Assembly: GCA_016215455.1 (NCBI GenBank)
Contig: JACRJP010000003.1
Span: 124-64,123, forward strand
Direction of reading: 5' to 3'
Origin: Candidatus Tayloriibacteriota bacterium
Lineage (GTDB): Bacteria > Patescibacteriota > Minisyncoccia > Phycocordibacterales > PALSA-1337
Length of the DNA: 64,000 nucleotides
Shown here: one piece after another, positions 1 to 30,979 of the stretch
How positions within the stretch are numbered: the stretch's first letter is position 1
How the letters are laid out: every line of letters starts with the position of its first letter
Program-made: the position numbers and the translations under genes
The notes under the pieces: generated by a model
Told to the model about the DNA's origin: nothing
The model's input: the letters and a program-made list of their open reading frames with translations, nothing else
Database searches by the model: none

Positions 1-741
1 GGTACTTGCGTAGGGGAAAGTGTTGAGTGCTGTTGTTGTAGCAGTGAAGTTTGCTCCGACGACTTGGCCAACGACTGAGAGAGCTGCGTATGGTGAGGTG
101 GTACCGATACCAATTTTCCCTGTAGAAAGAGCTGTAAATACATTAGCACTTCCCTGTCCTAACAAATTAAGAATACTACCAGCACCAGCCTGACTGAATG
201 TTACAAAGTTAGATGCTGTACTTGTTGAATTTGTTGCATCTGAACGAAGGAATTGTGCTGAATCATACCCTTCGAGTGTTTTTGCTACAAAAGCAGCTGG
301 AACAGCTCCCAACAATTTACGTGGAGTCATTTCTCCATCCCATGACGGTGTATTTCCTGAACCTCCAATATTAATACCGAGATAGAGTGTCTGATTGAAA
401 TCAACACCAGTAAATGCTGTTGTACTTCCGAGCAATGTACTAAACAAACCACTTGTTATCGGAATACGATTATCAGTTCCTGTTCCACTACATGCTGTAC
501 CTTTACACCATGTTTCAGTCCACAAAGGTGAACCACCTGTTGGTGTTGTATAGAGTTTAAATTCAATATTGTAACTTCCATCAGATACCGCAACGTTACT
601 ACTATTAGTAAGTTTACCTTGATAATTAATTTGCTGATTAAATGCTGCACGAGCAACATTTGTAGTACCTAATCCAAATGGCAATACCATAACGCCACAA
701 ACGACACTCAGAATAAGTGTCCTTTGTGCTACATATTTCAT
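1..741 (-). CDS. Secreted surface protein, N-terminal part only (gene continues beyond window start)
   Basis: Manually translated from ATG at complement of 739-741: MKYVAQRTLILSVVCGVMVLPFGLG... signal peptide, then a beta-rich Thr/Gly/Ser-rich region with the motif NYQGKL...DGSYNIEFKLY...GGSPLWTETW recurrent in large uncharacterised surface proteins. Open to the window edge; not in the ORF track because it is truncated. Confidence 0.5.
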   Translation of the reverse strand, partial: MKYVAQRTLILSVVCGVMVLPFGLGTTNVARAAFNQQINYQGKLTNSSNVAVSDGSYNIEFKLYTTPTGGSPLWTETWCKGTACSGTGTDNRIPITSGLFSTLLGSTTAFTGVDFNQTLYLGINIGGSGNTPSWDGEMTPRKLLGAVPAAFVAKTLEGYDSAQFLRSDATNSTSTASNFVTFSQAGAGSILNLLGQGSANVFTALSTGKIGIGTTSPYAALSVVGQVVGANFTATTTALNTFPYAST

Positions 742-758
742 TATAGAAATATAGTTTT

Positions 759-2183
759 TCACGTTATGTAATGTTTAATCTTCCGCACAACAAGTCGCAC
801 AAGCAGGAGAAGAGCAATGATAATAAGAATGAAGATCACGATTGGGATAATGAAATCAACAACATCGTATCGAGGTTCTGGATTCTTGGTTGATGTCTCT
901 GATATATCGTGTGGCACGATAAATGCTCCCTCGAGTTTTTTGAGAGATCTCTGTTTATAATCGAGAATTGTGATACTAAAATTATACGTCCCTGCTCGTT
1001 CGAAATTATCGAGAGTTGTTTCATACGCTGTCTTTTCTTTATTTAAATGAAGAAGATATGCATACTTTTTATTATTATTAGTAGGATCTTGAATAGTAAC
1101 TGCTACTGTTTTGAGGTTTTCAGGCAACTTATCATACGCGATCGATAATGTGACATTATCTCGTTCATCAAGTTGAATTGAACTCTGTGTAAATGATATT
1201 TTTTCTCCACGTTGTTTGAAATCAAAATCAACAAGATTAACTGTAGTAGAAGCTTTTGTTCCAACAACAGGCACTAAAGGAAATTGAGAAAAAGGATCAG
1301 GTACAACAGGAATGATAATTACTGACGAAGTCGCATCAGGTGCTTGAGTAATCTTTGTAGGAACAATAATTTTTACAACAGCACCTGATGAGTAATTCCC
1401 TGCATAATCACGAGCGAATGCTGCATAATAATATGTTGCACCAGATTTAATACTTGAGTCAGTTGTATATGATCCTCGTCCTTCATATACCACCTTTCCA
1501 TCAAATGGATCTTTTGGAAAGAATGTCTCGGAACGCAAAACTCGAACAACATCGAAATCGTTGTCACTTGGATTTCTCCATGTAAGTTGGATTGCATCGC
1601 CTCTGATCGTACCTTCAAGTCGAGAAATATTTGCAGGAGCTGAAGAGTCAGGGATAGCAAGAGTGATGAATGCGAGACCCTTTACACTTGTTACTACCTG
1701 ACGAGTATCTTGACCATCAATACGGAAGTAATATGTTTGATTTGGAAATAGGTTTTCTATTTTAACACTGTGATTATTCGCATAGTTAATCTCAGATACG
1801 GTGCCGAGTTCATAATCATTCGTAAGTCCCCATGCCAAAGTTCCGATAGAAACACGATTTGTTTTCCATGTAATAACAACTGAAGTAGCCCCTGGACGAA
1901 CTTCAACATCAGACAATATGAGATTTGCGTACGAAGGAGTACTACCGCCACTCGATCCACTTGGTGTAGGAGTGATACAGTCATTTGAACAATTTGAAGT
2001 ATTCTCTCCAAGAGAGCTCTCACATATATTATTGTTATTACAACCCTGTACATTAAGCTCCACTTCAACATTTGAGGCCTGTCCTGAATATGGCAACACA
2101 ACACCAACCACGCAGAATGTAACCGCTATGAGCGTTGCAAATCGGTGGAGGAGTTGGTTTGTTGATAAAGAAGAGCTTCGCAT
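759..2183 (-). CDS. Membrane-anchored surface protein with Fn3-like (purple-acid-phosphatase N-like) beta-sandwich repeats; signal peptide plus C-terminal TM anchor
   Basis: 474 aa. N-terminal hydrophobic segment, Cys/Asn-rich stalk, repeated W-K/R-N-P and YYF/YYY beta-sandwich motifs (ITWKT..., LTWRNPSDNDFD..., YYFRI, TYYYAAFA). C-terminal IIPIVIFILIIIALLLLV followed by a basic tail. Confidence 0.55.
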   Translation of the reverse strand: MRSSSLSTNQLLHRFATLIAVTFCVVGVVLPYSGQASNVEVELNVQGCNNNNICESSLGENTSNCSNDCITPTPSGSSGGSTPSYANLILSDVEVRPGATSVVITWKTNRVSIGTLAWGLTNDYELGTVSEINYANNHSVKIENLFPNQTYYFRIDGQDTRQVVTSVKGLAFITLAIPDSSAPANISRLEGTIRGDAIQLTWRNPSDNDFDVVRVLRSETFFPKDPFDGKVVYEGRGSYTTDSSIKSGATYYYAAFARDYAGNYSSGAVVKIIVPTKITQAPDATSSVIIIPVVPDPFSQFPLVPVVGTKASTTVNLVDFDFKQRGEKISFTQSSIQLDERDNVTLSIAYDKLPENLKTVAVTIQDPTNNNKKYAYLLHLNKEKTAYETTLDNFERAGTYNFSITILDYKQRSLKKLEGAFIVPHDISETSTKNPEPRYDVVDFIIPIVIFILIIIALLLLVRLVVRKIKHYIT

Positions 2184-2191
2184 AATGTTTT

Positions 2192-2932
2192 CTATAATGT
2201 CGTTGCGGTGACAATAACCGTTGTACTATAACTTCCTGCATCCTGAATCTTCGAAGTACCTATAGCTGCTCGATACTTAATGGTGGTAGTTGCTCCGTTT
2301 GGATGGTTTGAAGATGCTCCTGTTGCAACAATTTTATTTACCGTAGAGAGACCGTCCCAACACTTATCAACCGTGTCTAAACCTCCTGCATTACAAATTG
2401 ATCCATTGTCACGAAAACGTGCATCGACATCGACTCCTTCAGGAGTGAAACCGAACCTCGATTCGGTTGCTGCATAGGTGTAATCGTAATCAGGATCAGC
2501 TCCACTTGGTGCATAGTCATCAAAACTTGCACCACCTGGACCTTGCAATGCAGGACTTGTTACCGAACGAACTGAAAGTGTATACCCTGCCGCATTGTCA
2601 GTAAGAACTGTCCATGTACTTGAAGCAGTACTAAAACCTCCAGCCAAACCATTCAAACTTGGAAGAGCGTCATCATTTGGAGAAGTAATCGAAATATATG
2701 AAGATTGCATTTGTTGATATCCTGCATACATTGAGTACGATGTACTTGAAGAAAAACCAGTACCAATTTCTCCCATCGTCGCATCATCTTTATAGTTCGT
2801 ACTCTGACTTGGTGCTCCACCGAAATTAACTGAATCTGAATTCATACGATAGCTTGAACTTCCCATAACAAAAGCTTTGAGACTTACCGGCACTATGAGT
2901 GTGAGTATTGTTATAAGAAGAATAAGTCGCAT
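2192..2932 (-). CDS. Secreted beta-rich protein, WxL-domain-like (paralog of 3961-4629)
   Basis: 246 aa. Signal peptide. Shares with the 3961..4629 product the motifs TW(T/N)V.T(D/N)N..GYTL(S/T)V and (T/L)KYR near a Thr-rich C-terminus (...TTVIVTATTL vs ...TATITATATTI). Confidence 0.5.
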   Translation of the reverse strand: MRLILLITILTLIVPVSLKAFVMGSSSYRMNSDSVNFGGAPSQSTNYKDDATMGEIGTGFSSSTSYSMYAGYQQMQSSYISITSPNDDALPSLNGLAGGFSTASSTWTVLTDNAAGYTLSVRSVTSPALQGPGGASFDDYAPSGADPDYDYTYAATESRFGFTPEGVDVDARFRDNGSICNAGGLDTVDKCWDGLSTVNKIVATGASSNHPNGATTTIKYRAAIGTSKIQDAGSYSTTVIVTATTL

Positions 2933-2940
2933 ATGTAATG

Positions 2941-3948
2941 TTATACTTTTCTCTTAAATTCAAATCGACTTGCAATGTAGTATCCCAAACCAACAACGAA
3001 CACGATCACACCAAAGAGAGCTGCGAGGATTTTCCATGGAATTACCCAGAATGTGACAACTCGTTCATCAACGATATTGCCGTAGCCTCGATTCAAGTGA
3101 AGCGTTGCTTTGTAACGTCCAATGAGATACACCTTATCCCATTCAACACTACGATAGCGGAGAGAGTTAGGAAGTGAGAAGTAAGCATCGACTGGAAGTG
3201 TCGTGACTTTCCGGCCGAATGTATTGGTAATATCAACAGTACCAAATGGTACAAGGTGGATAGAACCACTGTTATTGTAGAGAATTTCAAAGGTTGTAGG
3301 TCCTTGCTGTCGGATAAATGAAGTACTTGGCTGGACTCGAAATTCTTCAACTGATCCAGATTCATTTGCATCTCCATTTACTCGAACAAAGAAAAGAACT
3401 CCCAATCGAGAAATTATCTTATTTTGAGCAACTGTTTGAGAATTCTGTGCAGACTGTTCATCTTTATCTGGTTCATTCGAGATAAGAACTGATGAATAGA
3501 ATCCTCCTGGCTGTGCGTCTTGTGGAACATTGATCGATATAGGAATATTGATTCGCTGTCCAAATTCAAGAGTAAACTCACGTACCTCAGGAACAAGGTT
3601 GTCCTTGAATGAGTACGGACTCTTATCATTTCCAAGAAGCACGACCGGCTTATCAATATCTCGTGAACCCACGAAGTCTTCCACTTCTATCTTAAAGTGT
3701 ACCTTTCGTTTAATACGATTTGTAATACTGATACTTCGTGTCACCGATTCTCCAGGATTAAGGAACACCTCTACCTTACCCGGTTCAAGAACAAAGTCGT
3801 TTTGTTCAGTCACAGCTACAGGAGCAAGTGTAACCGCGTGAACATACTGAGGTATCGCAACAACACCGAAAGCAACCATGAGACTTATTCCCAATCCGGT
3901 CATATATGAAATTGTTCGAGAATGTGTAGTCATAATAATCTTCTTCAT
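2941..3948 (-). CDS. Cell-surface protein with DUF916/DUF3324-like architecture (CscA-like): signal peptide, two beta-sandwich regions, C-terminal TM anchor plus basic tail
   Basis: 335 aa. N-terminal signal/TM (GLGISLMVAFGVVAIPQYVHA). C-terminal WKILAALFGVIVFVVGLGYYIASRFEFKRKV anchor. Internal acidic/Gln-rich linker. Sits between the two WxL-like paralogs, as in Firmicutes csc loci. Family assignment is from pattern recall, not a search. Confidence 0.45.
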   Translation of the reverse strand: MKKIIMTTHSRTISYMTGLGISLMVAFGVVAIPQYVHAVTLAPVAVTEQNDFVLEPGKVEVFLNPGESVTRSISITNRIKRKVHFKIEVEDFVGSRDIDKPVVLLGNDKSPYSFKDNLVPEVREFTLEFGQRINIPISINVPQDAQPGGFYSSVLISNEPDKDEQSAQNSQTVAQNKIISRLGVLFFVRVNGDANESGSVEEFRVQPSTSFIRQQGPTTFEILYNNSGSIHLVPFGTVDITNTFGRKVTTLPVDAYFSLPNSLRYRSVEWDKVYLIGRYKATLHLNRGYGNIVDERVVTFWVIPWKILAALFGVIVFVVGLGYYIASRFEFKRKV

Positions 3949-3960
3949 ATGAAGAATTGA

Positions 3961-4629
3961 TTAGATTGTTGTTGCTGTTGCTGTGATTGTTGCAGTGTAG
4001 GTACCAGAGTCAATGTAAATACCTTTTTGTTCGACTGCATAACAAAGAGTTGTATCAACTCCTGATGTTGTTGTAGTAGAAGAACGAGTTGCAATTGTTG
4101 GACTTGCTGATGTAGTAAATCCTCGGTACTTCAATGTTGTTGATGGAGTACTTGTTGCACCACATGAGACACCTCCTGTAGCTGTACCGTATGTACTTGT
4201 GTTTACATCAGTTCCAAAAGCACTGTAACCAAATTCTGCTCGACCTGTTGGAATCGTACTCCACAATTCCGGTGTAGTTGTTGTTGCAAAGTCATTCACA
4301 TACTGTGAACCACTAACACGCATTGCTGGGTTTGTTGAAGCCGCAACAGTGAGTGTGTATCCAAGTACATTATTTGTCTTCACGTTCCATGTAGTAGTTG
4401 CAATTGCTGTGTTCACCGCAGCACCCAATGCTGTACTCATTGTAGTATCAGCTGGACTGGTGATCGTAATACCTGTATCAACTTGCAATGTAACGACAAC
4501 ACTATCAGTTGCTGTCGCCGCATCAACAAGATTTGGTTCAAGATATATACCACTTGCAATAAGCACTAATGTAACAATGAGAGACATTCCCAAAGTCTTC
4601 TTTAATGTTGTTATTGTAAATTGTTTCAT
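3961..4629 (-). CDS. Secreted beta-rich protein, WxL-domain-like (paralog of 2192-2932)
   Basis: 222 aa. Signal peptide. Conserved TTWNVKTNNVLGYTLTV and TLKYRGF motifs. Extremely Thr/Ala/Ser-rich. Confidence 0.5.
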   Translation of the reverse strand: MKQFTITTLKKTLGMSLIVTLVLIASGIYLEPNLVDAATATDSVVVTLQVDTGITITSPADTTMSTALGAAVNTAIATTTWNVKTNNVLGYTLTVAASTNPAMRVSGSQYVNDFATTTTPELWSTIPTGRAEFGYSAFGTDVNTSTYGTATGGVSCGATSTPSTTLKYRGFTTSASPTIATRSSTTTTSGVDTTLCYAVEQKGIYIDSGTYTATITATATTI

Positions 4630-4732
4630 GTTGATAATTTTTATTCCTAACTACTGAATGATGAGAGCACGACCTCTCTTCACATTCATGTGTCGTGAAC
4701 CAACTCTTGGTCCACCACACATGAACACGAAG

Positions 4733-5620
4733 CTACTTTTTCACAGGCACAACAACATACATATATTTGTCATTCGTTTCTTTTTTAAATACTGGCTGAA
4801 TAACACCTGATACTCCTGTATCATCTGACCAGATTTTTACTTCATCAGAAAAATTTTCCTGAACTGTTGTCTTTACCTGTGTATCAGTAACAACATCTCC
4901 TGATGAGGCAACAACGACCATACCTTGATACGTACCGTTACTCATGCAGTAGTCATTAGCTGAATGACATACTGGCTCACCACCGAATAGTGGTGAGAGG
5001 GCTGCATACTCGATAAGAGCAAGACGATTGACGAGAGTTACAATTGGTACGACAACATTTGCAACAAGACCTACCTGAGATGAAGGAGTAACACCGGCAG
5101 GTGTTCGAATAACTTCAATATTTGATGTCGCAACTGTTGGTGTTGGAGATGTTCGTACTTCACTCAATGTTTGAGACTCTGATGAAGTTAGGTATGAAGG
5201 TAATGCCACGATCGAAAGAAGGACAAAAGTAAAAACACCGACAGCAACCATAAGTGCCGCAGGAGAGATTTTTGGAATTGGAAATGAAATATGATGTGAT
5301 GAAGATTTCTCTTGAATAGTATTTGTAGTAGGTGGAGTTGTTTTCTCTGAATCAATTTTTCGAACCATTACTTCATGAACATTGAGAGGTTGTGCTACGG
5401 GCTGACTAGGCACTGAAATCTTTTGATCGAGTGTTCGAACATTCTTCTCGTAATTGAGGATGTCTTGTTCAGCAACAAACCACACTCGACCAACTCGGCG
5501 AGAATCAATTTTTGATCCTCGACAAAGCTGACCGATGTAGTCAGATGTATATCCTGTGAGAAGCGACGCGCTCTTCGCAGAAATATATTTCTTGCCTTCG
5601 AAAATAAATTCCGGGTGCAT
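4733..5620 (-). CDS. Bitopic membrane protein with N-terminal cytoplasmic HTH (excisionase/MerR-like HTH_17) and extracytoplasmic Thr/Val-rich domain; putative membrane-tethered transcriptional regulator
   Basis: N-terminus KYISAKSASLLTGYTSDYIGQLCRGSKIDSRRVGRVWFVAEQDI resembles HTH_17. Single TM (ISPAALMVAVGVFTFVLLSIVALP). Large C-terminal periplasmic/extracellular part. Confidence 0.45.
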   Translation of the reverse strand: MHPEFIFEGKKYISAKSASLLTGYTSDYIGQLCRGSKIDSRRVGRVWFVAEQDILNYEKNVRTLDQKISVPSQPVAQPLNVHEVMVRKIDSEKTTPPTTNTIQEKSSSHHISFPIPKISPAALMVAVGVFTFVLLSIVALPSYLTSSESQTLSEVRTSPTPTVATSNIEVIRTPAGVTPSSQVGLVANVVVPIVTLVNRLALIEYAALSPLFGGEPVCHSANDYCMSNGTYQGMVVVASSGDVVTDTQVKTTVQENFSDEVKIWSDDTGVSGVIQPVFKKETNDKYMYVVVPVKK

Positions 5621-5650
5621 AGTGGTAGTGCAATTATTATACGGCAGAGA

Positions 5651-5895
5651 TATCGAACCGAGATTATTAAATCTCGGAAAAGCTGGGGATAAGTTCGGAT
5701 AGCCGAGAACAAAATATTTTAAGCCATATACTTCCGATATCTCGGACGAGATTATTACGTAAATATTTTTGTATCTCGGATAGTTTTTTATAGTAATTTT
5801 GTATATAAAAATTATTTACATTACTACACCTTATTTAGAAATATAGTGTGTATAAAAACGCTAAATAAAAAATATCTCGGCTACCCGAGATATCC
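5651..5895. promoter_or_regulatory. Array of ATCTCGG / CCGAGAT heptamer repeats including a perfect palindrome ATATCTCGG-CTAC-CCGAGATAT (5872-5893); putative operator region upstream of the HTH-TM regulator gene
   Basis: Motif copies at 5658-5664 (CCGAGAT), 5671-5677, 5738-5745, 5772-5779, 5872-5880 plus inverted copy 5885-5893, within a 308-nt AT-rich intergenic region immediately 5' of the minus-strand gene 4733..5620. Confidence 0.4.
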
Positions 5896-5928
5896 TTATA
5901 TTATTTAGTTCTTTTTCAAAAAAACTCA

Positions 5929-6813
5929 TTAATTACCAAGCAGCTTCATAAAGGTTATTGGATCGATAGAAACTCCTTGAACCTTAACCGAGATATGCAA
6001 ATGAGCACCTTCAGCGTATCCAGTTTTACCTGACAATCCAATTTCCTGACCTCGCACAACTCTCTCTCCTTCTCTAACTTTTATCTTTGAAAGATGTAAA
6101 TAGAGGGTCACAATTCCTTGCCCATGGTCAATAGCTATTAAATTACCGTACGCTCGAAATTCACGTGCCAATCGAACAACTCCATCATTCATCGCAATCA
6201 CAGAAGTTCCTTCTGCTGCACGAAAATCTGTACCCTTGTGAGCAATGAGTGACGTACCAGTTACTCGTGAATATCCATACGTATCAGTAACAAAAATATC
6301 TTTAATAGGATATATAAAATTTTTACTCCACAAACGAGTAGAGGTACTGATAATATTTCGTAAAACTTCAGCTTCAGTATTGAGTGACTGAATAAGTTTC
6401 TTTTCTGCTTCTTTAGTATTACCTCCAAGTTGTTGTGGTATACCGAGAGGTGCCTCTACCTTTTTACGAGCAATAATTTTGAGTGTAGTTGAGGTGGCTG
6501 TACCATCAACAAAAAATACTGTCACCGGATAGTTCCCTGTCTTAGCTGCAAGATCAATACCTCCAATAGCGGTAGATTGGTCTTTGTATAGGAAAGTAGC
6601 AAGAGTCTTATTTTGAAATACAACCTTCTTTATATTCTCACTACTTGTCCCAGTTACAGCAACAAGAAAAGGTTCCCCTTGTAAAGATTGTTCTGGTTCA
6701 AGTCTTACAGCAAATACAACCGGACTTGAAGAGGTTGCTACATGTACCGGTACCTGATGTTGCTGATTAAGACCAAATAACGAGGCAAGAAAAATTATGA
6801 TAGATGAGAACAT
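5929..6813 (-). CDS. M23 family (LytM-like) peptidoglycan endopeptidase, secreted
   Basis: N-terminal signal peptide. C-terminal HKGTDFRAAEGTSV...DHGQGIVTLYLHLSKIKV...GKTGYAEGAHLHISV, matching the HxxxD / HxH zinc motifs of peptidase M23. Confidence 0.8.
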   Translation of the reverse strand: MFSSIIIFLASLFGLNQQHQVPVHVATSSSPVVFAVRLEPEQSLQGEPFLVAVTGTSSENIKKVVFQNKTLATFLYKDQSTAIGGIDLAAKTGNYPVTVFFVDGTATSTTLKIIARKKVEAPLGIPQQLGGNTKEAEKKLIQSLNTEAEVLRNIISTSTRLWSKNFIYPIKDIFVTDTYGYSRVTGTSLIAHKGTDFRAAEGTSVIAMNDGVVRLAREFRAYGNLIAIDHGQGIVTLYLHLSKIKVREGERVVRGQEIGLSGKTGYAEGAHLHISVKVQGVSIDPITFMKLLGN

Positions 6814-28500: not shown

Positions 28501-29538
28501 TTATGAGCAAATATCGATAACGGCGAGTTCAAGTGGTAATGACTCAATTGATGCACTATTCATTTGTTGAGTAGCTTGGAGAAGCTTTATAAGAAGTTGT
28601 GGCTGTAAAGCTGCCTTCTGACTTGTTGCGAGTTTTTCAAGGAATTCAAAATCTCCTTCCGATACTGTTGCTGCAAGTGCTGATTTCATCGAAGGTGCGT
28701 GTGCGAGCAAAAAGAGAGCTCGGGTCTTTTCAAGAACTAATCGAATAAAGACTATACTTGATACTCCACTTTCACTCACCGTTGCAATAGTCGACAATGC
28801 CGCATCTTTGTTCTTCATTACCAATGCTTCAATGAAAGAATTAACCAATTGTGACTTTGGTACTCCCAATACCACTTCAATCTCAGCAAGACTAATCTTG
28901 TCGTCCTTTGAAGCTGCTACAGCCTTCTGGAGAGTTCCTAATGTGTCACGGAATGATCCATCACCAAAGATTGCAATGAGGTCTGCAACTCCTTTTTCAA
29001 TGGTCACACCCTCTTTTTTAGCGACAGAAGTCACAAGTTCACGCAATACCTCAAGTGACGGCTTCTTGAAAGCAAAAACCTGACAGCGGGATACGATAGT
29101 TTCAGGAATCTTCTCTGTTTCAGTCGTCGCGAGGATGAAGATAGCGTGCTCTGGTGGTTCTTCAAGAGTTTTGAGAAGTGCATTGAAAGCTTCCTTGGTG
29201 AGCATGTGCACCTCATCAATGATATACACCTTGTATTTCGACTCAAATGGCAACACGTTGACGGCATCACGTATTTCACGAATATCATCAATACCACGAT
29301 TCGATGCTGCATCTATTTCATAGATATCATTGTCTGATGTACCGATAGCATGAGCGAAAATTCGAGCAATACTTGTCTTTCCTGTTCCTCGACTTCCTGC
29401 AAAGAGATACGCATGAGAAATGTTATCGGCCTTAATCGCACCTTCGAGAACTTTGACGATGGTGTCTTGCCCTTTAACTTCCTTAAAAGACTGTGGGCGG
29501 TATTTACGATACAGAGCTACGAAATTTTCCTTTGACAT
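28501..29538 (-). CDS. dnaX: DNA polymerase III subunit gamma/tau, short (345 aa; domains I-III only)
   Basis: KYRPQSFKEVKGQDTIVKVLEGAIKADNISHAYLFAGSRGTGKTSIARIFAHAI; DEVHML box; sensor motifs. Confidence 0.9.
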   Translation of the reverse strand: MSKENFVALYRKYRPQSFKEVKGQDTIVKVLEGAIKADNISHAYLFAGSRGTGKTSIARIFAHAIGTSDNDIYEIDAASNRGIDDIREIRDAVNVLPFESKYKVYIIDEVHMLTKEAFNALLKTLEEPPEHAIFILATTETEKIPETIVSRCQVFAFKKPSLEVLRELVTSVAKKEGVTIEKGVADLIAIFGDGSFRDTLGTLQKAVAASKDDKISLAEIEVVLGVPKSQLVNSFIEALVMKNKDAALSTIATVSESGVSSIVFIRLVLEKTRALFLLAHAPSMKSALAATVSEGDFEFLEKLATSQKAALQPQLLIKLLQATQQMNSASIESLPLELAVIDICS

Positions 29539-29625
29539 ATGGTCAGTATAGCAAATTTTATGAGAAAACTCTCAGAAACAAAAAACTAAGTGCGGTGAAA
29601 ATAAAAAAGTAATTCTATAAATAAA

Positions 29626-29920
29626 ATGGCCAGCGAAGTCTCCGGGAGGGATACACTTCGCTGGCAAACGCCGGAACTGACGGATTACTTGCGGGCGGCA
29701 GCTTCTTGGCCCGGGGAACCGATCGCGGCGACGGCAGCGCAGGAGGCATGGACGGCATCTTCAGGAGCGATGTGGCCGGCGATGATCGCGGAATTCACAG
29801 CGGAGTGAGCGGCGAACGAACAGGGACGTGGATTGGTCTTCATAGCGGGAACAATGTGGAACCGTTGATGAACTGCTGGAGTCACCCTGAGCAATGTAAG
29901 TTTCTACTCAGGTCCAGACG
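29626..29920 (-). ncRNA. Candidate structured ncRNA (~300 nt, GC-rich, ORF-free) with own promoter and intrinsic terminator, immediately upstream of dnaX; possibly long-form SRP RNA (ffs/scr) by synteny
   Basis: GC about 60% in a roughly 40% genome. No ORF over 73 aa on either strand. On the minus strand -35 TTGACG (29949-29954) / -10 TATATT (29927-29932) with 16-nt spacing. 10-bp GC stem CCAGCGAAGT...ACTTCGCTGG (29630-29664) followed on the minus strand by a U-tract. I could not locate the canonical domain-IV motif by eye. Confidence 0.35.
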
Positions 29921-29950: not shown

Positions 29951-30979
29951 TCAATATGCTGCAAGGTAGTTATCCACAGTCACTGACACCTCTGCTGCAG
30001 AGGTAGTTTCCATGAGTTTGAGACGTAATTCTTTTGAACCTTCCCAACCATGCACGTAGGCTTTGTAGTGTTTCTTCATGATGGCAAAGTTTTTGTAGTC
30101 CCCCAATAGTTTTTCAAAAAGTTGTGTATGCTCAACCATCACTCGTAATTTTTCTGCAACGTACTCTCGTACTTTTGGATCAGAAAGTTTTGCATCAGCA
30201 GACAAAGCATGTCGCATCGGTGATGTCATATCAAAAAACCATGGATTACCAAAAATTCCTCGACCGACCATTGCTCCATCAGCACCAGACGTTTCAATCT
30301 TTGCATATGCATCTTCAAGACTTGTTACATCACCATTACCAATGATCTTAGTCGAGAGCCCCATTCGATCTCGAATCGCAACCACTTCCTTAACATGTTC
30401 CCATCGTGCTGGGACATCAGACATTTCTTTACGAGTACGAGCGTGGATGGTCAAAGCAGCAATTCCCTCTTCTAAAATCGCTGGAATCCATGTATCTATT
30501 TCAACCTTGTTATATCCCACACGAGTTTTAACTGAAACAGGAAGACCTCCGGCACCACGTTTAGCTGCACGAATCACTTCTTTTGCAGTCGCTGGGTCCT
30601 TGATATGAGCAGCTCCAGCACCCTGCTTCTCAATACTCCGATCAGGACACCCCATATTAATATCGATACCATCAAAACCGAGTTTTGCGGCAAGAGCAGC
30701 GGCTTGTTCCATTTTTTCAGGATGGGCAGTAAAAAGTTGAGCGACGATAGGGCGTTCAGTTTCAGAATATGCGAGATCTCGTTCGAGTGTCTTTCGCCCA
30801 GGAGAACAAAGTCCATCTGCAGAGACAAACTCAGTCCACATGACTGCAGGACCACCATCCTTTGATCCCATACGACTGTATTTCGCTATGATCTGACGAA
30901 AAGCAGGATCAGTAACATCCGCCATCGGAGCAATGACGACAAAGGGTTTCGTAAGTTGTGACCAGAAATCTGAATTCAT
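29951..30979 (-). CDS. dus: tRNA-dihydrouridine synthase
   Basis: VIAPMADVTDPAFRQI, DINMGCP (catalytic Cys), FMN-binding TIM-barrel motifs. Confidence 0.85.
   Translation of the reverse strand: MNSDFWSQLTKPFVVIAPMADVTDPAFRQIIAKYSRMGSKDGGPAVMWTEFVSADGLCSPGRKTLERDLAYSETERPIVAQLFTAHPEKMEQAAALAAKLGFDGIDINMGCPDRSIEKQGAGAAHIKDPATAKEVIRAAKRGAGGLPVSVKTRVGYNKVEIDTWIPAILEEGIAALTIHARTRKEMSDVPARWEHVKEVVAIRDRMGLSTKIIGNGDVTSLEDAYAKIETSGADGAMVGRGIFGNPWFFDMTSPMRHALSADAKLSDPKVREYVAEKLRVMVEHTQLFEKLLGDYKNFAIMKKHYKAYVHGWEGSKELRLKLMETTSAAEVSVTVDNYLAAY

Follow-up and report, generated by a model that had tools for sequence, protein, structure and literature searches.

Organization of the locus

The gene at positions 4733-5620 of the 64-kb window, by which we mean the whole stretch of DNA that was analyzed, encodes a protein that is annotated at NCBI as hypothetical protein HZA80_01435 of Candidatus Taylorbacteria, an ultrasmall bacterium of the CPR. 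Its start is the first ATG/GTG/TTG codon past the upstream in-frame stop, and homologs align from Met1. The protein consists of a winged helix-turn-helix (wHTH) domain, a disordered linker, one transmembrane (TM) helix and an external region (aa 141-295), and is therefore called wHTH-TM protein below. An M23 peptidase gene (5929-6813, minus strand) is located upstream, and the intergenic region between both genes (5621-5928) comprises 308 nt. The features of the locus are collected in Table 1, in which negative positions are counted from the start codon of the wHTH-TM gene.

Table 1. Genes, protein domains, promoter elements, and RNA structures at the wHTH-TM locus.
Feature	Position	Strand	Description
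Tail-fibre-like giant surface protein, start	1..741	-	signal peptide, GIGTTSPY motif; extends beyond the window
Gene 5	759..2183	-	474 aa; FnIII-type domains and C-terminal TM helix, PamR architecture; synteny
Gene 4	2192..2932	-	246 aa; candidate distant relative of PamT, the tip protein of the CPR pilus
Gene 3	2941..3948	-	335 aa; signal peptide, Ig/PapD-like region, C-terminal TM helix (hydrophobic tail in the sequence; synteny)
Gene 2	3961..4629	-	222 aa, secreted, beta-rich, pilin-like; paralog of gene 4 (cross-matches of the 222-aa and 246-aa proteins, conserved synteny)
Intercistronic RNA hairpin	4630..4732	-	between wHTH-TM gene and first pilin-like gene; -38.8 kcal/mol, z -5.1; without U-tract
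wHTH-TM gene	4733..5620	-	295-aa bitopic membrane protein, first cistron of the operon (ORF list, family alignments A1 and A3, AF2 models)
Conserved C-terminal external domain	4736..4930	-	aa ~231-295; motifs FSDE...SG.SGVI.PVFKK...Y.YV.VPV
Single TM helix	5201..5263	-	aa 120-140; Kyte-Doolittle 19-residue maximum 2.72 at aa 122-140; AF2 helix 120-138
N-terminal Xis/BldC/MerR-type wHTH	5441..5620	-	aa 1-60; topology beta-beta-alpha-alpha-beta-beta-alpha
TATAAT, predicted -10 box	5636..5641	-	15 nt upstream of ATG; conserved in loci L001, L082, L084
Promoter-proximal sites	5645..5677	-	CCGAGAT (-57..-51), 6 nt, ATCTCGG (-44..-38), 6 nt, ATCTCTG (-31..-25)
DnaA-box-like element (D-box) TTATCCCCA	5684..5692	-	-72..-64; 8/9 matches to consensus TTATCCACA
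Degenerate palindrome TTCTCGG-cta-TCCGAAC	5693..5709	-	directly 5' of the D-box
ATCTCG-t-CCGAGAT	5739..5752	-	CCGAGAT at -125..-119 invariant in window, L001, L082, L084
Lone CCGAGAT half-site	5773..5779	-	-159..-153; kept in L001 amid diverged sequence
Intrinsic terminator of the M23 peptidase gene	5863..5893	-	perfect palindrome ATATCTCGG-GTAG-CCGAGATAT, then U5AUUU

The wHTH-TM protein

The N-terminus had been described in the first-pass annotation as an HTH_17-like DNA-binding domain, and PF12728 matches in homologs as well as Foldseek comparisons identify it as a wHTH of the HTH_17/Xis/MerR type. The protein itself matches no Pfam family, neither at full length (E ≤ 0.1) nor with residues 1-73 (E ≤ 10), so that a profile search detects the HTH not in this protein, but in its homologs over the same domain. 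PF12728 (HTH_17) matches 5 of 24 aligned homologs in alignment A1 with a best E-value of 2.4e-5, and the giant relatives P0073 (35.9 bits) and P0078 (32.6 bits) exceed its gathering score of 27. In the AF2 model of residues 1-60 (pLDDT ~95), the HTH precedes a beta-hairpin wing and a C-terminal helix, an arrangement that can be superimposed on Xis/MerR domains, and the model matches the DNA-binding domains of Xis, BldC, TraN, RacA, GlnR/TnrA, and MerR. Among Xis, BldC, TraN, RacA, and GlnR/TnrA are several proteins that bind to arrays of short repeats, either as monomers or in cooperative multimers. An OmpR/PhoB-type winged helix (Trans_reg_C) was not found by Pfam, and every strong structural match is of the MerR/Xis type; a PDB sequence search with the family profile gave a spurious pannexin match only. 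The domain family comprises ~1,100 clusters at 50% identity, and in many relatives the wHTH is present twice in tandem. Residues S26-R34 (SDYIGQLCR), the putative recognition helix, hardly vary in the family alignments, which follows from the retrieval of the loci by a pattern containing DYIGQLCR.

The single TM helix that had been proposed is supported by both hydropathy and the AF2 model. Without a signal peptide, and with a cytoplasmic wHTH, one TM helix and an external C-terminal domain, the protein is predicted to be bitopic with its N-terminus inside. The segment aa 184-208 was considered as a second TM helix, which would have put the C-terminus into the cytoplasm. It is hydrophobic in the window protein and its closest relative alone and charged or amphipathic in the other homologs, and is therefore not a TM helix. 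Conservation of the external part is restricted to the last ~65 of ~155 residues, with F257, S258, D259, P276, and F278 being invariant in the family alignments. A second AF2 model, based on a 54-sequence alignment, reaches a pLDDT of 70-90 for aa 231-280 and <56 for aa 281-295, leaving the last strand of the domain with low model confidence. Even this deeper model gave no fold match for the C-terminal domain, and a homolog search with the C-terminal fragment 4733-5086 gave no match either, which may be explained by a stop codon in the query. Moreover, the wHTH-TM module also occurs in fusion with tail-fibre-like proteins that range from 500 to 3,878 aa. Such fusions argue for an external part that serves structural or docking purposes no less than sensing.

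A cluster of heptamers upstream of the wHTH-TM gene

The first-pass annotation had counted at least six copies of the heptamer ATCTCGG or its complement CCGAGAT in the upstream region. There are exactly six, all inside the 308-nt intergenic region and within 234 bp (5658-5891): 5658-5664 (-), 5671-5677 (+), 5739-5745 (+), 5773-5779 (+), 5874-5880 (+), and 5885-5891 (-). In addition, three copies with one mismatch are present (5645 ATCTCTG, 5703 TTCTCGG, 5746 ATCTCGT). Both strands of the 64 kb contain 12 exact copies in total, compared to 6.6 +/- 2.6 in shuffled sequences, and at the window-wide rate ~0.03 copies are expected per 308 nt (Poisson P ~1e-12). The remaining six copies (377, 5988, 23553, 33082, 55529, 61292) occur at chance frequency, all of them within open frames of at least 120 codons. 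The window has ten further gaps with a length of ≥150 nt between such frames, all of them free of exact copies. A similar density throughout intergenic regions, which would have pointed to a generic repeat, is therefore not observed, and the motif proved to be specific to this gene.

The perfect palindrome at 5872-5893 (ATATCTCGG-CTAC-CCGAGATAT), which had been highlighted as part of the array, is exact and consists of two motif copies. However, the palindrome also serves the upstream M23 gene as an intrinsic terminator of canonical form: the hairpin has a 9-13 bp stem (-16.4 kcal/mol, z -5.5), begins ~35 nt past the M23 stop codon and is followed by a U-tract, which makes it an intrinsic terminator whatever other role it may have. 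It is conserved in the related locus L001 and is listed by a terminator-like scan as well. At the other end of the gene, the intercistronic region folds into another strong hairpin, a feature not mentioned in the first-pass annotation. Its stem is kept in L001 with compensatory changes, and L084 has a hairpin of unrelated sequence at the same place (z -10.4). Rfam detected tRNAs only in the whole window at gathering thresholds, and a permissive scan of 5560-5990 gave only far-sub-threshold sRNA matches. The GC-rich island at 29615-29905 has neither an Rfam match nor an excess of folding energy on either strand.

Between the terminator and the start codon, the heptamers are arranged around putative promoter elements. 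In nearly all family loci, a TATAAT-like hexamer precedes the ATG by 7-16 nt, and the position of the TATAAT in the window implies a very short leader. The site ATCTCTG ends 3 nt ahead of this predicted -10 box. The pair CCGAGAT-N5/6-ATCTCG is kept in L001, and AATCTCGG is found in L082. The degenerate palindrome next to the D-box corresponds to TCTCGG-ATAA-CCGAGA palindromes at the same place in giant-type relatives. TTATCCACA is the canonical high-affinity DnaA box. This exact sequence is present at -55..-70 in 49 of 81 loci, ~80-fold enriched and orientation-specific, and about a dozen further loci have TTATCCCCA. Thus, a DnaA-box consensus, which the first-pass annotation had not reported, sits at a fixed position of the predicted promoters in wHTH loci. 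We considered an origin of replication and rejected it: the window contains no excess of DnaA boxes (19 one-mismatch matches vs. 20 expected), the GC skew does not switch at 5.7 kb, and the box is a single one at a fixed promoter distance.

Conservation of the motif in related loci

In L001, whose protein is 58% identical, half-sites, D-box, and TATAAT are intact, whereas the distal spacer has diverged. A four-way alignment of the window with L001, L082, and L084 retains CCGAGAT (-125), the D-box, AATCTCG, and TATAAT. For a broader comparison, 82 loci were taken from species-level genomes. The heptamer density there is 5.2/kb at -130..0 and 6.8/kb at 0..+60 compared to 0.07-0.14/kb at distances of >1 kb, corresponding to a ~50-fold enrichment within -130..+60 of wHTH gene starts, and the core hexamer is present in this interval in 78 of the 82 loci vs. 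10.7% of control windows. The motif is found with three architectures. Among the giant tail-fibre-like fusions, 26 of 29 genes have upstream copies, and TCTCGG-ATAA-CCGAGA-like palindromes abut the D-box in eight. Operon-type genes carry ATCTCG at +37 in 43 of 48 cases and an upstream copy in 18 of 48, mostly CCGAGAT at -33. Finally, an independent metagenome scan of tandem-wHTH proteins, from genomes with ~53% GC, revealed the motif in 70 of 73 loci vs. 30% of controls. Altogether, the same motif occurs beside the same protein domain in >150 other species, with A-t-C-CGAGA-T as its extended form. By this distribution, the motif tracks the wHTH domain rather than the cargo, and other genes are without it.

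The intragenic copy at +37 in the relatives is a further feature that the first-pass annotation did not contain. Ile13 is encoded by ATC in 53 of 71 genes (background 25%) and Ser14 by TCG in 47 of 72 (background 9%), and in the third subfamily TCG is used for Ser14 in 59 of 67 genes vs. 26%. Codon usage therefore indicates that the +37 copy is held by synonymous-codon constraint in most operon-type genes. With the ~50-fold enrichment, the conservation in 78 of 82 loci and the recurrence in three architectures, the proposed reading of the repeats as an operator array has gained strong comparative support.

A Pam-like surface operon follows the wHTH-TM gene

The proposed link to the adjacent surface genes turned out to be real. 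In 49 of 81 loci, and also in L082 and L084, the wHTH-TM gene is followed by homologs of the downstream genes, either the complete set or a part of it, which makes the wHTH-TM gene the first cistron of a conserved operon. Gene 2 matched neither NCBIfam nor Pfam when searched for a major pilin of the PamA/PamB/PamE type. Gene 3 has weak Pfam matches to Motile_Sperm (PapD-like clan) and Ig (E 0.045-0.07, with 0.045 for Motile_Sperm), and is a candidate for a membrane-anchored chaperone of the PamC/D type. Gene 4 matches NCBIfam NF058579 with an E-value of 8.2e-10, but with 38.5 bits compared to a cut-off of 240 and over the N-terminal half of the model only, and its orthologs in L082 and L084 behave the same (E 1.6e-10 and 4.3e-12, respectively). 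Gene 5 matches Pur_ac_phosph_N (8.5e-6) and fn3 (1e-3), and the sequence also shows its C-terminal TM helix. An FnIII protein of this architecture beside a tail-fibre-like open reading frame is the arrangement of the PamR type. At the position of the latter, L082 and L084 harbor genes of 2,215 and 1,865 aa, respectively, the former with a faint Peptidase_S74 match. By these matches and predicted architectures, the operon appears to be distantly related to the CPR Pam pilus. According to the preprint describing it, Pam occurs mainly in Saccharimonadia and Microgenomatia (bioRxiv 10.64898/2026.03.03.709456), and no HTH gene, regulator or promoter element is described in the text searched. This preprint was the only useful source in a literature search on regulators, promoter motifs or TTATCCACA in CPR, which otherwise gave nothing relevant.

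Which protein reads the motif?

We consider it fairly probable, though with clear reserve, that ATCTCGG/CCGAGAT is a family-specific operator at the promoter of a five- to six-gene Pam-like pilus/tail-fibre operon, which is most likely read by the wHTH of the first cistron itself in a negative autoregulation. In this model, membrane-held wHTH modules, monomeric or tandem, would occupy half-sites that flank or overlap the core promoter. The sites at -57, -44, and -31 sit between the DnaA-box-like element (-72) and the putative -10 box (-21), and additional copies are found at -88, -125/-132, and -159. Occupancy of these sites would throttle transcription of the own operon, and the state of the external C-terminal domain, e.g., its docking to pilus or fibre components, could modulate this occupancy. 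The most distal pair (-271/-260), being a palindrome with U-tract, acts as terminator that insulates the promoter from the M23 gene. Recognition helix DYIGQLCR and DNA motif are matched in their near-invariance, which counts for the wHTH as reader, although the retrieval by this very helix does not allow a co-variation of protein and operator to be assessed. The association between domain and motif is correlative. Several observations speak against autoregulation by the wHTH: the protein lacks a Pfam HTH match, the terminator role is a sufficient alternative for the palindrome at 5872-5893, and the upstream copies at -68 to -160 have an unfavorable location for a simple repression. Furthermore, a DNA-binding domain on a surface fibre of 3,878 aa is hard to reconcile with a classical diffusible regulator.

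We regard a farther-reaching version of this reading as rather unlikely. The proteins would then represent a Patescibacteria-wide class of envelope appendage proteins that carry their own DNA-binding domain N-terminally on the cytoplasmic side of the TM helix, and proteins of the pilus base as well as tail-fibre-like giants (up to 3,878 aa) would be among its members. The wHTH, as the first part to leave the ribosome, would bind in cis at the promoter or +37 site of the gene that is still being transcribed and translated, giving a membrane-coupled autoregulatory switch for each gene or a physical link between the locus and the place where the appendage is assembled, and the DnaA box would gate all of this to the replication cycle.

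The cis evidence leaves the binding protein unnamed, and therefore the motif might be a true operator that is read by another protein, e.g., a soluble regulator coordinating envelope and appendage genes, with the wHTH-TM protein being a structural anchor only. The module indeed resembles an anchor for pili and fibres, and MerR-like folds can bind proteins as well (CbpM, DafA). However, a general envelope regulator is expected to have more targets, but the motif is at background away from wHTH genes in the related loci and absent from the other gaps of the window. It also stays with the domain in three unrelated C-terminal architectures and in differing neighborhoods (M23, ABC ATPase, gatB), so that we judge a different reader unlikely. 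Quite improbable is an action of the copies as RNA elements, i.e., terminator and leader hairpins that affect termination, mRNA stability or translation without sequence-specific DNA binding. The textbook terminator with its U-tract, a hairpin at 5658-5677 (-10.6 kcal/mol, z -3.95), the folding of the entire 308-nt region (z -4.4) and the complementarity of CCGAGAU (-33) and AUCUCGG (+37) in relatives would fit to it. However, the two other candidate hairpins are no better than shuffled sequences (z -0.8 and -1.8), no Rfam family matches, and most copies are located upstream of the conserved TATAAT and thus probably outside the mRNA. Isolated half-sites (5773, 5739, and -33), the variable number, spacing, and orientation of the copies, the variable loops and a stem sequence that is kept in >150 species without compensatory change, which is a signature of sequence recognition, argue that the copies act as DNA and not as RNA.

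The second conserved element of these promoters, TTATCC[A/C]CA, could be the real wHTH target, in which case the CCGAGAT copies would belong to another system. Its position is more constant (-55..-70), and the exact conservation in 49 of 81 loci fits to this as well. On the other hand, TTATCCACA is the canonical DnaA box and is, in the same loci, also found upstream of genes without wHTH (small MerR-like, small acidic protein) with no CCGAGAT nearby, whereas CCGAGAT is the element exclusive to wHTH genes; we thus regard this exchange of targets as very improbable. The least plausible idea, to which we give hardly any credence, is that the inverted heptamers are crossover sites of a site-specific invertase for phase-variable promoter inversion, or a generic REP/MITE-like repeat. 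Inverted repeats do flank promoter and start codon in some relatives (-33/+37), and the composite GGCTTAAAAT+ATCTCGG is present in either orientation in different genomes. However, no recombinase is conserved beside the loci, and a 7-bp repeat with 63-bp spacing is to our knowledge too small for known invertases. Against a dispersed repeat speaks that the copies form neither a tandem nor a mobile unit, and that those outside the intergenic region lie in open reading frames at chance frequency.

Autoregulation by the wHTH would be of interest, since gene regulation in Patescibacteria (CPR) is almost entirely uncharted, and a role in the attachment to host cells is ascribed to CPR pili and fibres. 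The loci share a widely conserved regulatory module, which consists of a putative 7-9 bp operator, a DnaA-box-like element, a near-leaderless promoter and a candidate cognate DNA-binding domain, and accompanies both a Pam-like pilus operon and giant tail-fibre-like proteins. If the wHTH binds its own promoter, it would represent a membrane-tethered regulator type on an Xis/MerR fold, and the giants an unusual case of DNA-binding domains fused to surface proteins. The data also appear to extend the newly described Pam-type gene set in a distant form to Paceibacteria, with a first candidate for its control.

Comparison with known systems

The operon is similar in kind to the CPR Pam pilus operon as described in the preprint (bioRxiv 10.64898/2026.03.03.709456), with pilin-like secreted proteins, a PamT-like protein, a candidate PapD-like protein and an FnIII protein, both having a TM helix at the C-terminus, and a tail-fibre-like gene next to them. 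It differs in that PamT alone is detectable, far below the family cut-off, and that loci of the window type belong to Paceibacteria/Parcubacteria. The order of a regulator gene, a strong hairpin and a pilin gene resembles the pap operon with PapB/PapI and its papB-papA intercistronic processing. In pap, differential mRNA stability results from this order. Homology between the regulators is lacking, however, and in the window operon a processing is suggested by the predicted RNA structure alone.

TraN of the type IV secretion system (T4SS) on the Enterococcus plasmid pIP501 is the top Foldseek match (probability 0.99, 25-26% identity over ~53 residues). It binds double-stranded DNA, has excisionase-like HTH folds and is encoded within the operon of an envelope machine as well. 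TraN represses its own T4SS operon. Unlike the wHTH-TM protein, TraN is a soluble protein of the cytoplasm and is part of a conjugation system instead of a pilus/fibre operon. BldC and the phage/ICE excisionases (Xis, RdfS, AlpA) are likewise small soluble MerR-like wHTH proteins, whereas the domain described here is tethered by linker and TM helix, is often tandem in relatives, and has a different motif (ATCCGAGAT). The chromosome anchor RacA of Bacillus subtilis, a structural match with a MerR-like wHTH, recognizes short, GC-rich inverted repeats and connects the DNA with the membrane or the cell pole. However, RacA attaches via DivIVA and not via an own TM helix, and has dozens of sites around oriC, whereas the motif described here is confined to the protein's own gene.

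The first-pass annotation had compared the protein to ToxR and CadC, which holds for the topology and not for the DNA-binding domain. Like ToxR, TcpP, and CadC, it is bitopic with a cytoplasmic N-terminal winged-helix domain, one TM helix and an external C-terminal domain, and is presumed to bind, tethered to the membrane, several copies of a site in the promoter of an operon for the envelope or a pilus. In contrast to these regulators, the domain is of the MerR/Xis/HTH_17 type and not of the OmpR/PhoB type, without sequence homology, and the external part is short with ~65 conserved residues and giant and tail-fibre-like in paralogs. Moreover, the wHTH-TM gene is itself the first cistron of the operon that is presumed to be under its control.

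A local heptamer cluster upstream of a membrane-tethered wHTH gene

The 295-aa protein, which combines an N-terminal winged helix-turn-helix (wHTH) with a transmembrane (TM) helix, is identical to the hypothetical protein HZA80_01435 of a Candidatus Taylorbacteria MAG (Patescibacteria/CPR), and its gene is preceded by a 308-nt intergenic region and an M23 peptidase gene on the same strand. Exact copies of ATCTCGG occur 12 times over both strands of the 64-kb window, compared with 6.6 +/- 2.6 times in shuffled sequences, and six of these copies lie at 5658-5891, where ~0.03 would be expected in 308 nt at the window-wide rate; further copies with one mismatch lie at 5645, 5703, and 5746. All six remaining exact copies are located within long open frames, and none is present in the 10 other gaps of at least 150 nt between such frames in the window. 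The clustering is thus genuine, confined to this region, and far in excess of chance, which bears out the array of ATCTCGG/CCGAGAT repeats, including an exact palindrome, described by the first-pass annotation, and speaks against a generic intergenic repeat. One coding copy, at the conserved H-I-S-V motif of the M23 peptidase, is likewise present in L001, the locus of a 58% identical relative; conservation of the amino acids is the simplest explanation for it, in preference to a role as an operator copy.

Features of the wHTH-TM locus and of a GC-rich island in the window
Feature	Window position (strand)	Position relative to ATG
Fibre-like ORF, running off the window	1-741	
Intercistronic RNA hairpin	4630-4732 (-)	
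wHTH-TM ORF	4733-5620 (-)	
Intergenic region	5621-5928	
TATAAT		-21
CCGAGAT, 6 nt, ATCTCGG, 6 nt, ATCTCTG		-57, -44, -31
D-box TTATCCCCA	5684-5692 (-)	-72
TTCTCGG-cta-TCCGAAC		-89/-78
GGCTTAAAAT element	5716-5725 (-)	between -125 and -89 sites
ATCTCG-t-CCGAGAT		-132/-125
CCGAGAT half-site		-159
Terminator palindrome ATATCTCGG-CTAC-CCGAGATAT	5872-5893	-271/-260
M23 peptidase gene	5929-6813 (-)	
Heptamer inside M23 gene	5988-5994	
dnaX	28501-29538 (-)	
GC-rich island	29615-29905	
69-aa ORF in the island	29685-29894 (-)	
Dihydrouridine-synthase-like gene	29951-30979 (-)	

Elsewhere in the window, a 300-nt island of ~60% GC in this ~39% GC genome separates dnaX from a dihydrouridine-synthase-like gene and holds a 69-aa ORF followed by a hairpin and a T-run; the island has no Rfam match and no excess folding energy on either strand.

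The 295-aa protein alone has no Pfam match, even at E<=10 for residues 1-73. However, PF12728 (HTH_17) is matched by five of the 24 aligned homologues and two AlphaFold2 models give residues 1-60 a beta-beta-alpha-alpha-beta-beta-alpha topology (pLDDT ~95), and the domain is thus a winged HTH of the Xis/BldC/MerR type, in agreement with the HTH_17-like domain proposed initially. The wHTHs of the giant relatives, often two in tandem, score above the Pfam gathering score for HTH_17. In the homologue alignments, S26-R34 (SDYIGQLCR), which is the putative recognition helix, and the arginines of the wing show little or no variation. The single TM helix, also predicted before, spans residues 120-140; a second candidate at 184-208 is hydrophobic in the window protein but charged in homologues and was rejected. 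Only the last ~65 of the ~155 external residues are conserved (FSDE...SGVI.PVFKK...Y.YV.VPV); in the models they form a small alpha/beta unit in which the terminal strand is poorly placed, and a search with the predicted model gave no fold match.

The motif is shared by three protein architectures

In L001, the distal spacer has diverged and every half-site, TTATCC[A/C]CA, and TATAAT are intact, and a four-way alignment of the window with L001, L082, and L084 keeps CCGAGAT (-125), the D-box, AATCTCG, and TATAAT. In 82 loci, the heptamer reaches 5.2/kb at -130..0 and 6.8/kb at 0..+60 compared with 0.07-0.14/kb more than 1 kb away, and the core hexamer is present in 78/82 loci vs. 10.7% of control windows. 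The family comprises operon-type proteins of ~300 aa, giant-type tail-fibre-like fusions of 500 to 3,878 aa with Peptidase_S74 and Ig-like domains, and tandem-type proteins, in which a tandem pair of wHTH copies is followed by a TM helix and a short tail; common to all are only the N-terminal wHTH and the TM helix, and all three carry the motif. Giant-type genes have an upstream motif in 26/29 cases, typically at -68, -78, or -97, with a palindrome such as TCTCGG-ATAA-CCGAGA adjoining the D-box in eight. Operon-type genes carry ATCTCG inside the gene at +37 in 43/48 cases and an upstream copy in 18/48, mostly CCGAGAT at -33 between D-box and -10 box; the window and L001 are atypical, with no +37 copy (ATT TCT) and the largest upstream array instead. 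In the tandem type, sampled by an independent metagenome scan (genomes of ~53% GC, mostly downstream of gatB), the motif is found in 70/73 genes vs. 30% of controls. The extended consensus from upstream sites is A-(T/A/G)-C-CGAGA-(T/A).

The Ile13/Ser14 codons, which overlap the +37 copy, were not part of the retrieval patterns. Ile13 is encoded by ATC in 53/71 genes vs. a 25% background and Ser14 by TCG in 47/72 vs. 9% (59/67 vs. 26% in the third subfamily), and this codon choice indicates that the +37 copy is held by selection on nucleotides. We are highly confident that the motif acts as a functional cis element specific to this family.

The third subfamily (metagenome contigs L086-L165, GC ~53%) encodes two tandem wHTHs, a linker, a TM helix, and a ~50-aa tail, usually directly downstream of gatB; its promoters have ATCCACA-type D-boxes and a TATACT -10 box 7 nt before the ATG, with TCTCGG/CCGAGA copies in between and ATCTCG at +37. 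In the giant relatives P0073 (1,699 aa) and P0078 (3,878 aa) and the giant-type loci L035-L081, wHTH and TM helix form the N-terminus of tail-fibre-like surface proteins, and it is unusual for a giant extracellular fibre to bear a DNA-binding domain.

Probable recognition as DNA and a proposed dual role of the terminator

Most copies lie upstream of TATAAT, which precedes the ATG by 7-16 nt in nearly all loci. If TATAAT is the -10 box, as we infer, the mRNAs would be leaderless or nearly so and the upstream copies would not be transcribed with the gene. Moreover, the copies vary between isolated half-sites and direct or inverted pairs of differing number and spacing, the arms are conserved in sequence across >150 species without compensatory change while the loops vary, and for two of the window's four candidate hairpins folding is no more stable than in shuffles. 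This is the signature expected of a motif recognized by its sequence as DNA and not through RNA structure, with the terminator as the exception. Several proteins of the Xis/BldC type bind repeat arrays as cooperative multimers, and the loose grammar would be accounted for by a monomeric or tandem wHTH of this type in which each domain binds a single short site.

The palindrome, which the first-pass annotation listed among the operator repeats, is mainly a terminator: read along the coding (minus) strand, 5893-5872 is GAUAUCUCGG-GUAG-CCGAGAUAU followed by U5AUUU, and since this hairpin starts ~35 nt past the M23 stop codon, is stable (-16.4 kcal/mol, z -5.5), and is conserved in L001, it is a canonical intrinsic terminator. 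It is nevertheless composed of two heptamer copies, and ATCTCGG-N4-CCGAGAT recurs in other genomes directly upstream of family promoters, where it is no terminator (L046, L047, L077). We read it as a dual-use element.

Promoter layout and the putative reader of the motif

Between D-box and -10 box, the gap is 42 nt in the window and 41 nt in L001 compared with 30-32 nt in giant-type and -33-type operon loci (counted by hand), with start-to-start distances of 50-51 vs. 40-41 in a pattern that reaches L082 and most other loci. These values differ by one helical turn, and the additional sites occupy the extra turn. Furthermore, a conserved GGCTTAAAAT(AT) element adjoins an (A/T)TCTCGG copy in the window and L001, as well as at -260..-450 in L017, L063, L010, L060, L065, and L084, in either orientation depending on the genome; possible roles are those of a second promoter or of a composite site for binding.

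The exact D-box form TTATCCACA is found orientation-specifically at a fixed place (-55..-70) in 49/81 loci (L002-L081), an ~80-fold enrichment. In these loci, TTATCC[A/C]CA also precedes a small MerR-like gene and a gene for a small, very acidic protein, both of which lack CCGAGAT in their vicinity. The D-box would be read by a general factor, for which DnaA is the obvious candidate, since TTATCCACA is the high-affinity DnaA consensus; its distribution points to an element of promoters that occurs widely in Paceibacteria and may depend on DnaA. The CCGAGAT motif is, unlike the D-box, exclusive to wHTH-encoding genes, and autoregulation by the wHTH is the most economical reading. On the other side, the recognition helix was part of the pattern used to retrieve the loci, so that its invariance among them follows from the selection, MerR-like folds are also able to bind proteins, and a giant fibre with a DNA-binding domain is not what is expected of a conventional regulator. 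The comparative evidence strengthens the earlier operator idea, and we infer, as a moderately probable reading, that the wHTH itself reads the motif.

A small MerR/HTH_17-like gene (MANQYITIKQASKILGVSPLTLRNWDKNGKL..., ~80 aa) is often divergent from the family gene, ~250-500 nt upstream (L011, L013, L017, L029, L036, L037, L042, L070, and others), and has an AT-rich element that recurs at its flanks, TTATAAAC(A/C)TTGATAAAC; other loci have an IS30-like HTH fragment in its place.

If the wHTH is the reader, membrane-tethered modules would occupy the -57/-44/-31 sites and occlude the core promoter, so that the operon as a whole would be negatively autoregulated. The copies further upstream could contribute cooperativity or looping, and the external C-terminal domain, or the fibre in paralogues, could couple occupancy to the assembly state of the appendage. 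The intercistronic hairpin probably adjusts the regulator:pilin ratio at the RNA level.

A Pam-like operon

L001 has the same order of a peptidoglycan-binding gene, the M23 gene, the wHTH-TM gene, and the downstream genes, which in the window encode proteins of 222, 335, 246, and 474 aa. Some or all of the downstream homologues follow the family gene in 49/81 loci (species-level genomes). L082 and L084 are organized alike and have a giant gene (2,215 and 1,865 aa, respectively) after this set, the counterpart of which is the fibre-like ORF at the window edge. The link to the adjacent surface cluster noted before is thus real; its conserved operon context with the wHTH-TM gene had been missed. 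The 246-aa protein and its orthologues match NCBIfam NF058579 ("CPR-type pilus protein PamT") with E 8e-10 to 4e-12 and scores far below the family cut-off. For the CPR pilus Pam, a preprint describes donor-strand-exchange pilins together with PapD-like chaperones and an FnIII protein that both have a C-terminal TM helix, as well as a co-located tail-fibre-like gene (10.64898/2026.03.03.709456). The window genes are alike in architecture and only distantly alike in sequence, and by this gene content we call the cluster Pam-like. A text search of the Pam preprint for HTH, transcription, and promoter gave no mention of such a gene or element (10.64898/2026.03.03.709456).

The strong intercistronic hairpin that separates the wHTH-TM gene from the first pilin-like gene folds at -38.8 kcal/mol (z -5.1) and has no U-tract. 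Its stem is kept in L001 (6892-7012) via compensatory changes, L084 has a hairpin of unrelated sequence in the same place (5964-6089, z -10.4), and L082 has none there. It may act in RNA processing or stability and thereby set the regulator-to-pilin ratio.

Comparison with known systems

The domain family is large and comprises 1,122 clusters at 50% identity (E<=1e-10), the majority of which have the domain twice in tandem. No description of the domain family, its operator, or any Pam-type pilus regulator was found in the literature. The interpretation given by the first-pass annotation is partly supported, with the HTH and the operator idea strengthened; the annotation had missed the giant fusions, the D-box, and the +37 site. 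We rate the family as a kind of membrane-bound one-component regulator with an unusually well-supported cis element, and the fusion of such a module to giant surface proteins is a surprising twist. The ToxR/CadC style suggested initially holds for the topology, yet the protein does not belong to the ToxR/TcpP/CadC group, as the OmpR-type DNA-binding domain that defines it was absent from the 295-aa protein when tested. By fold and through its homologues, the DNA-binding domain belongs to the MerR/Xis/HTH_17 superfamily, and the nearest functional analogies are TraN, which binds dsDNA and is encoded in the operon of an envelope machine, and RacA, whose wHTH ties DNA to the membrane.
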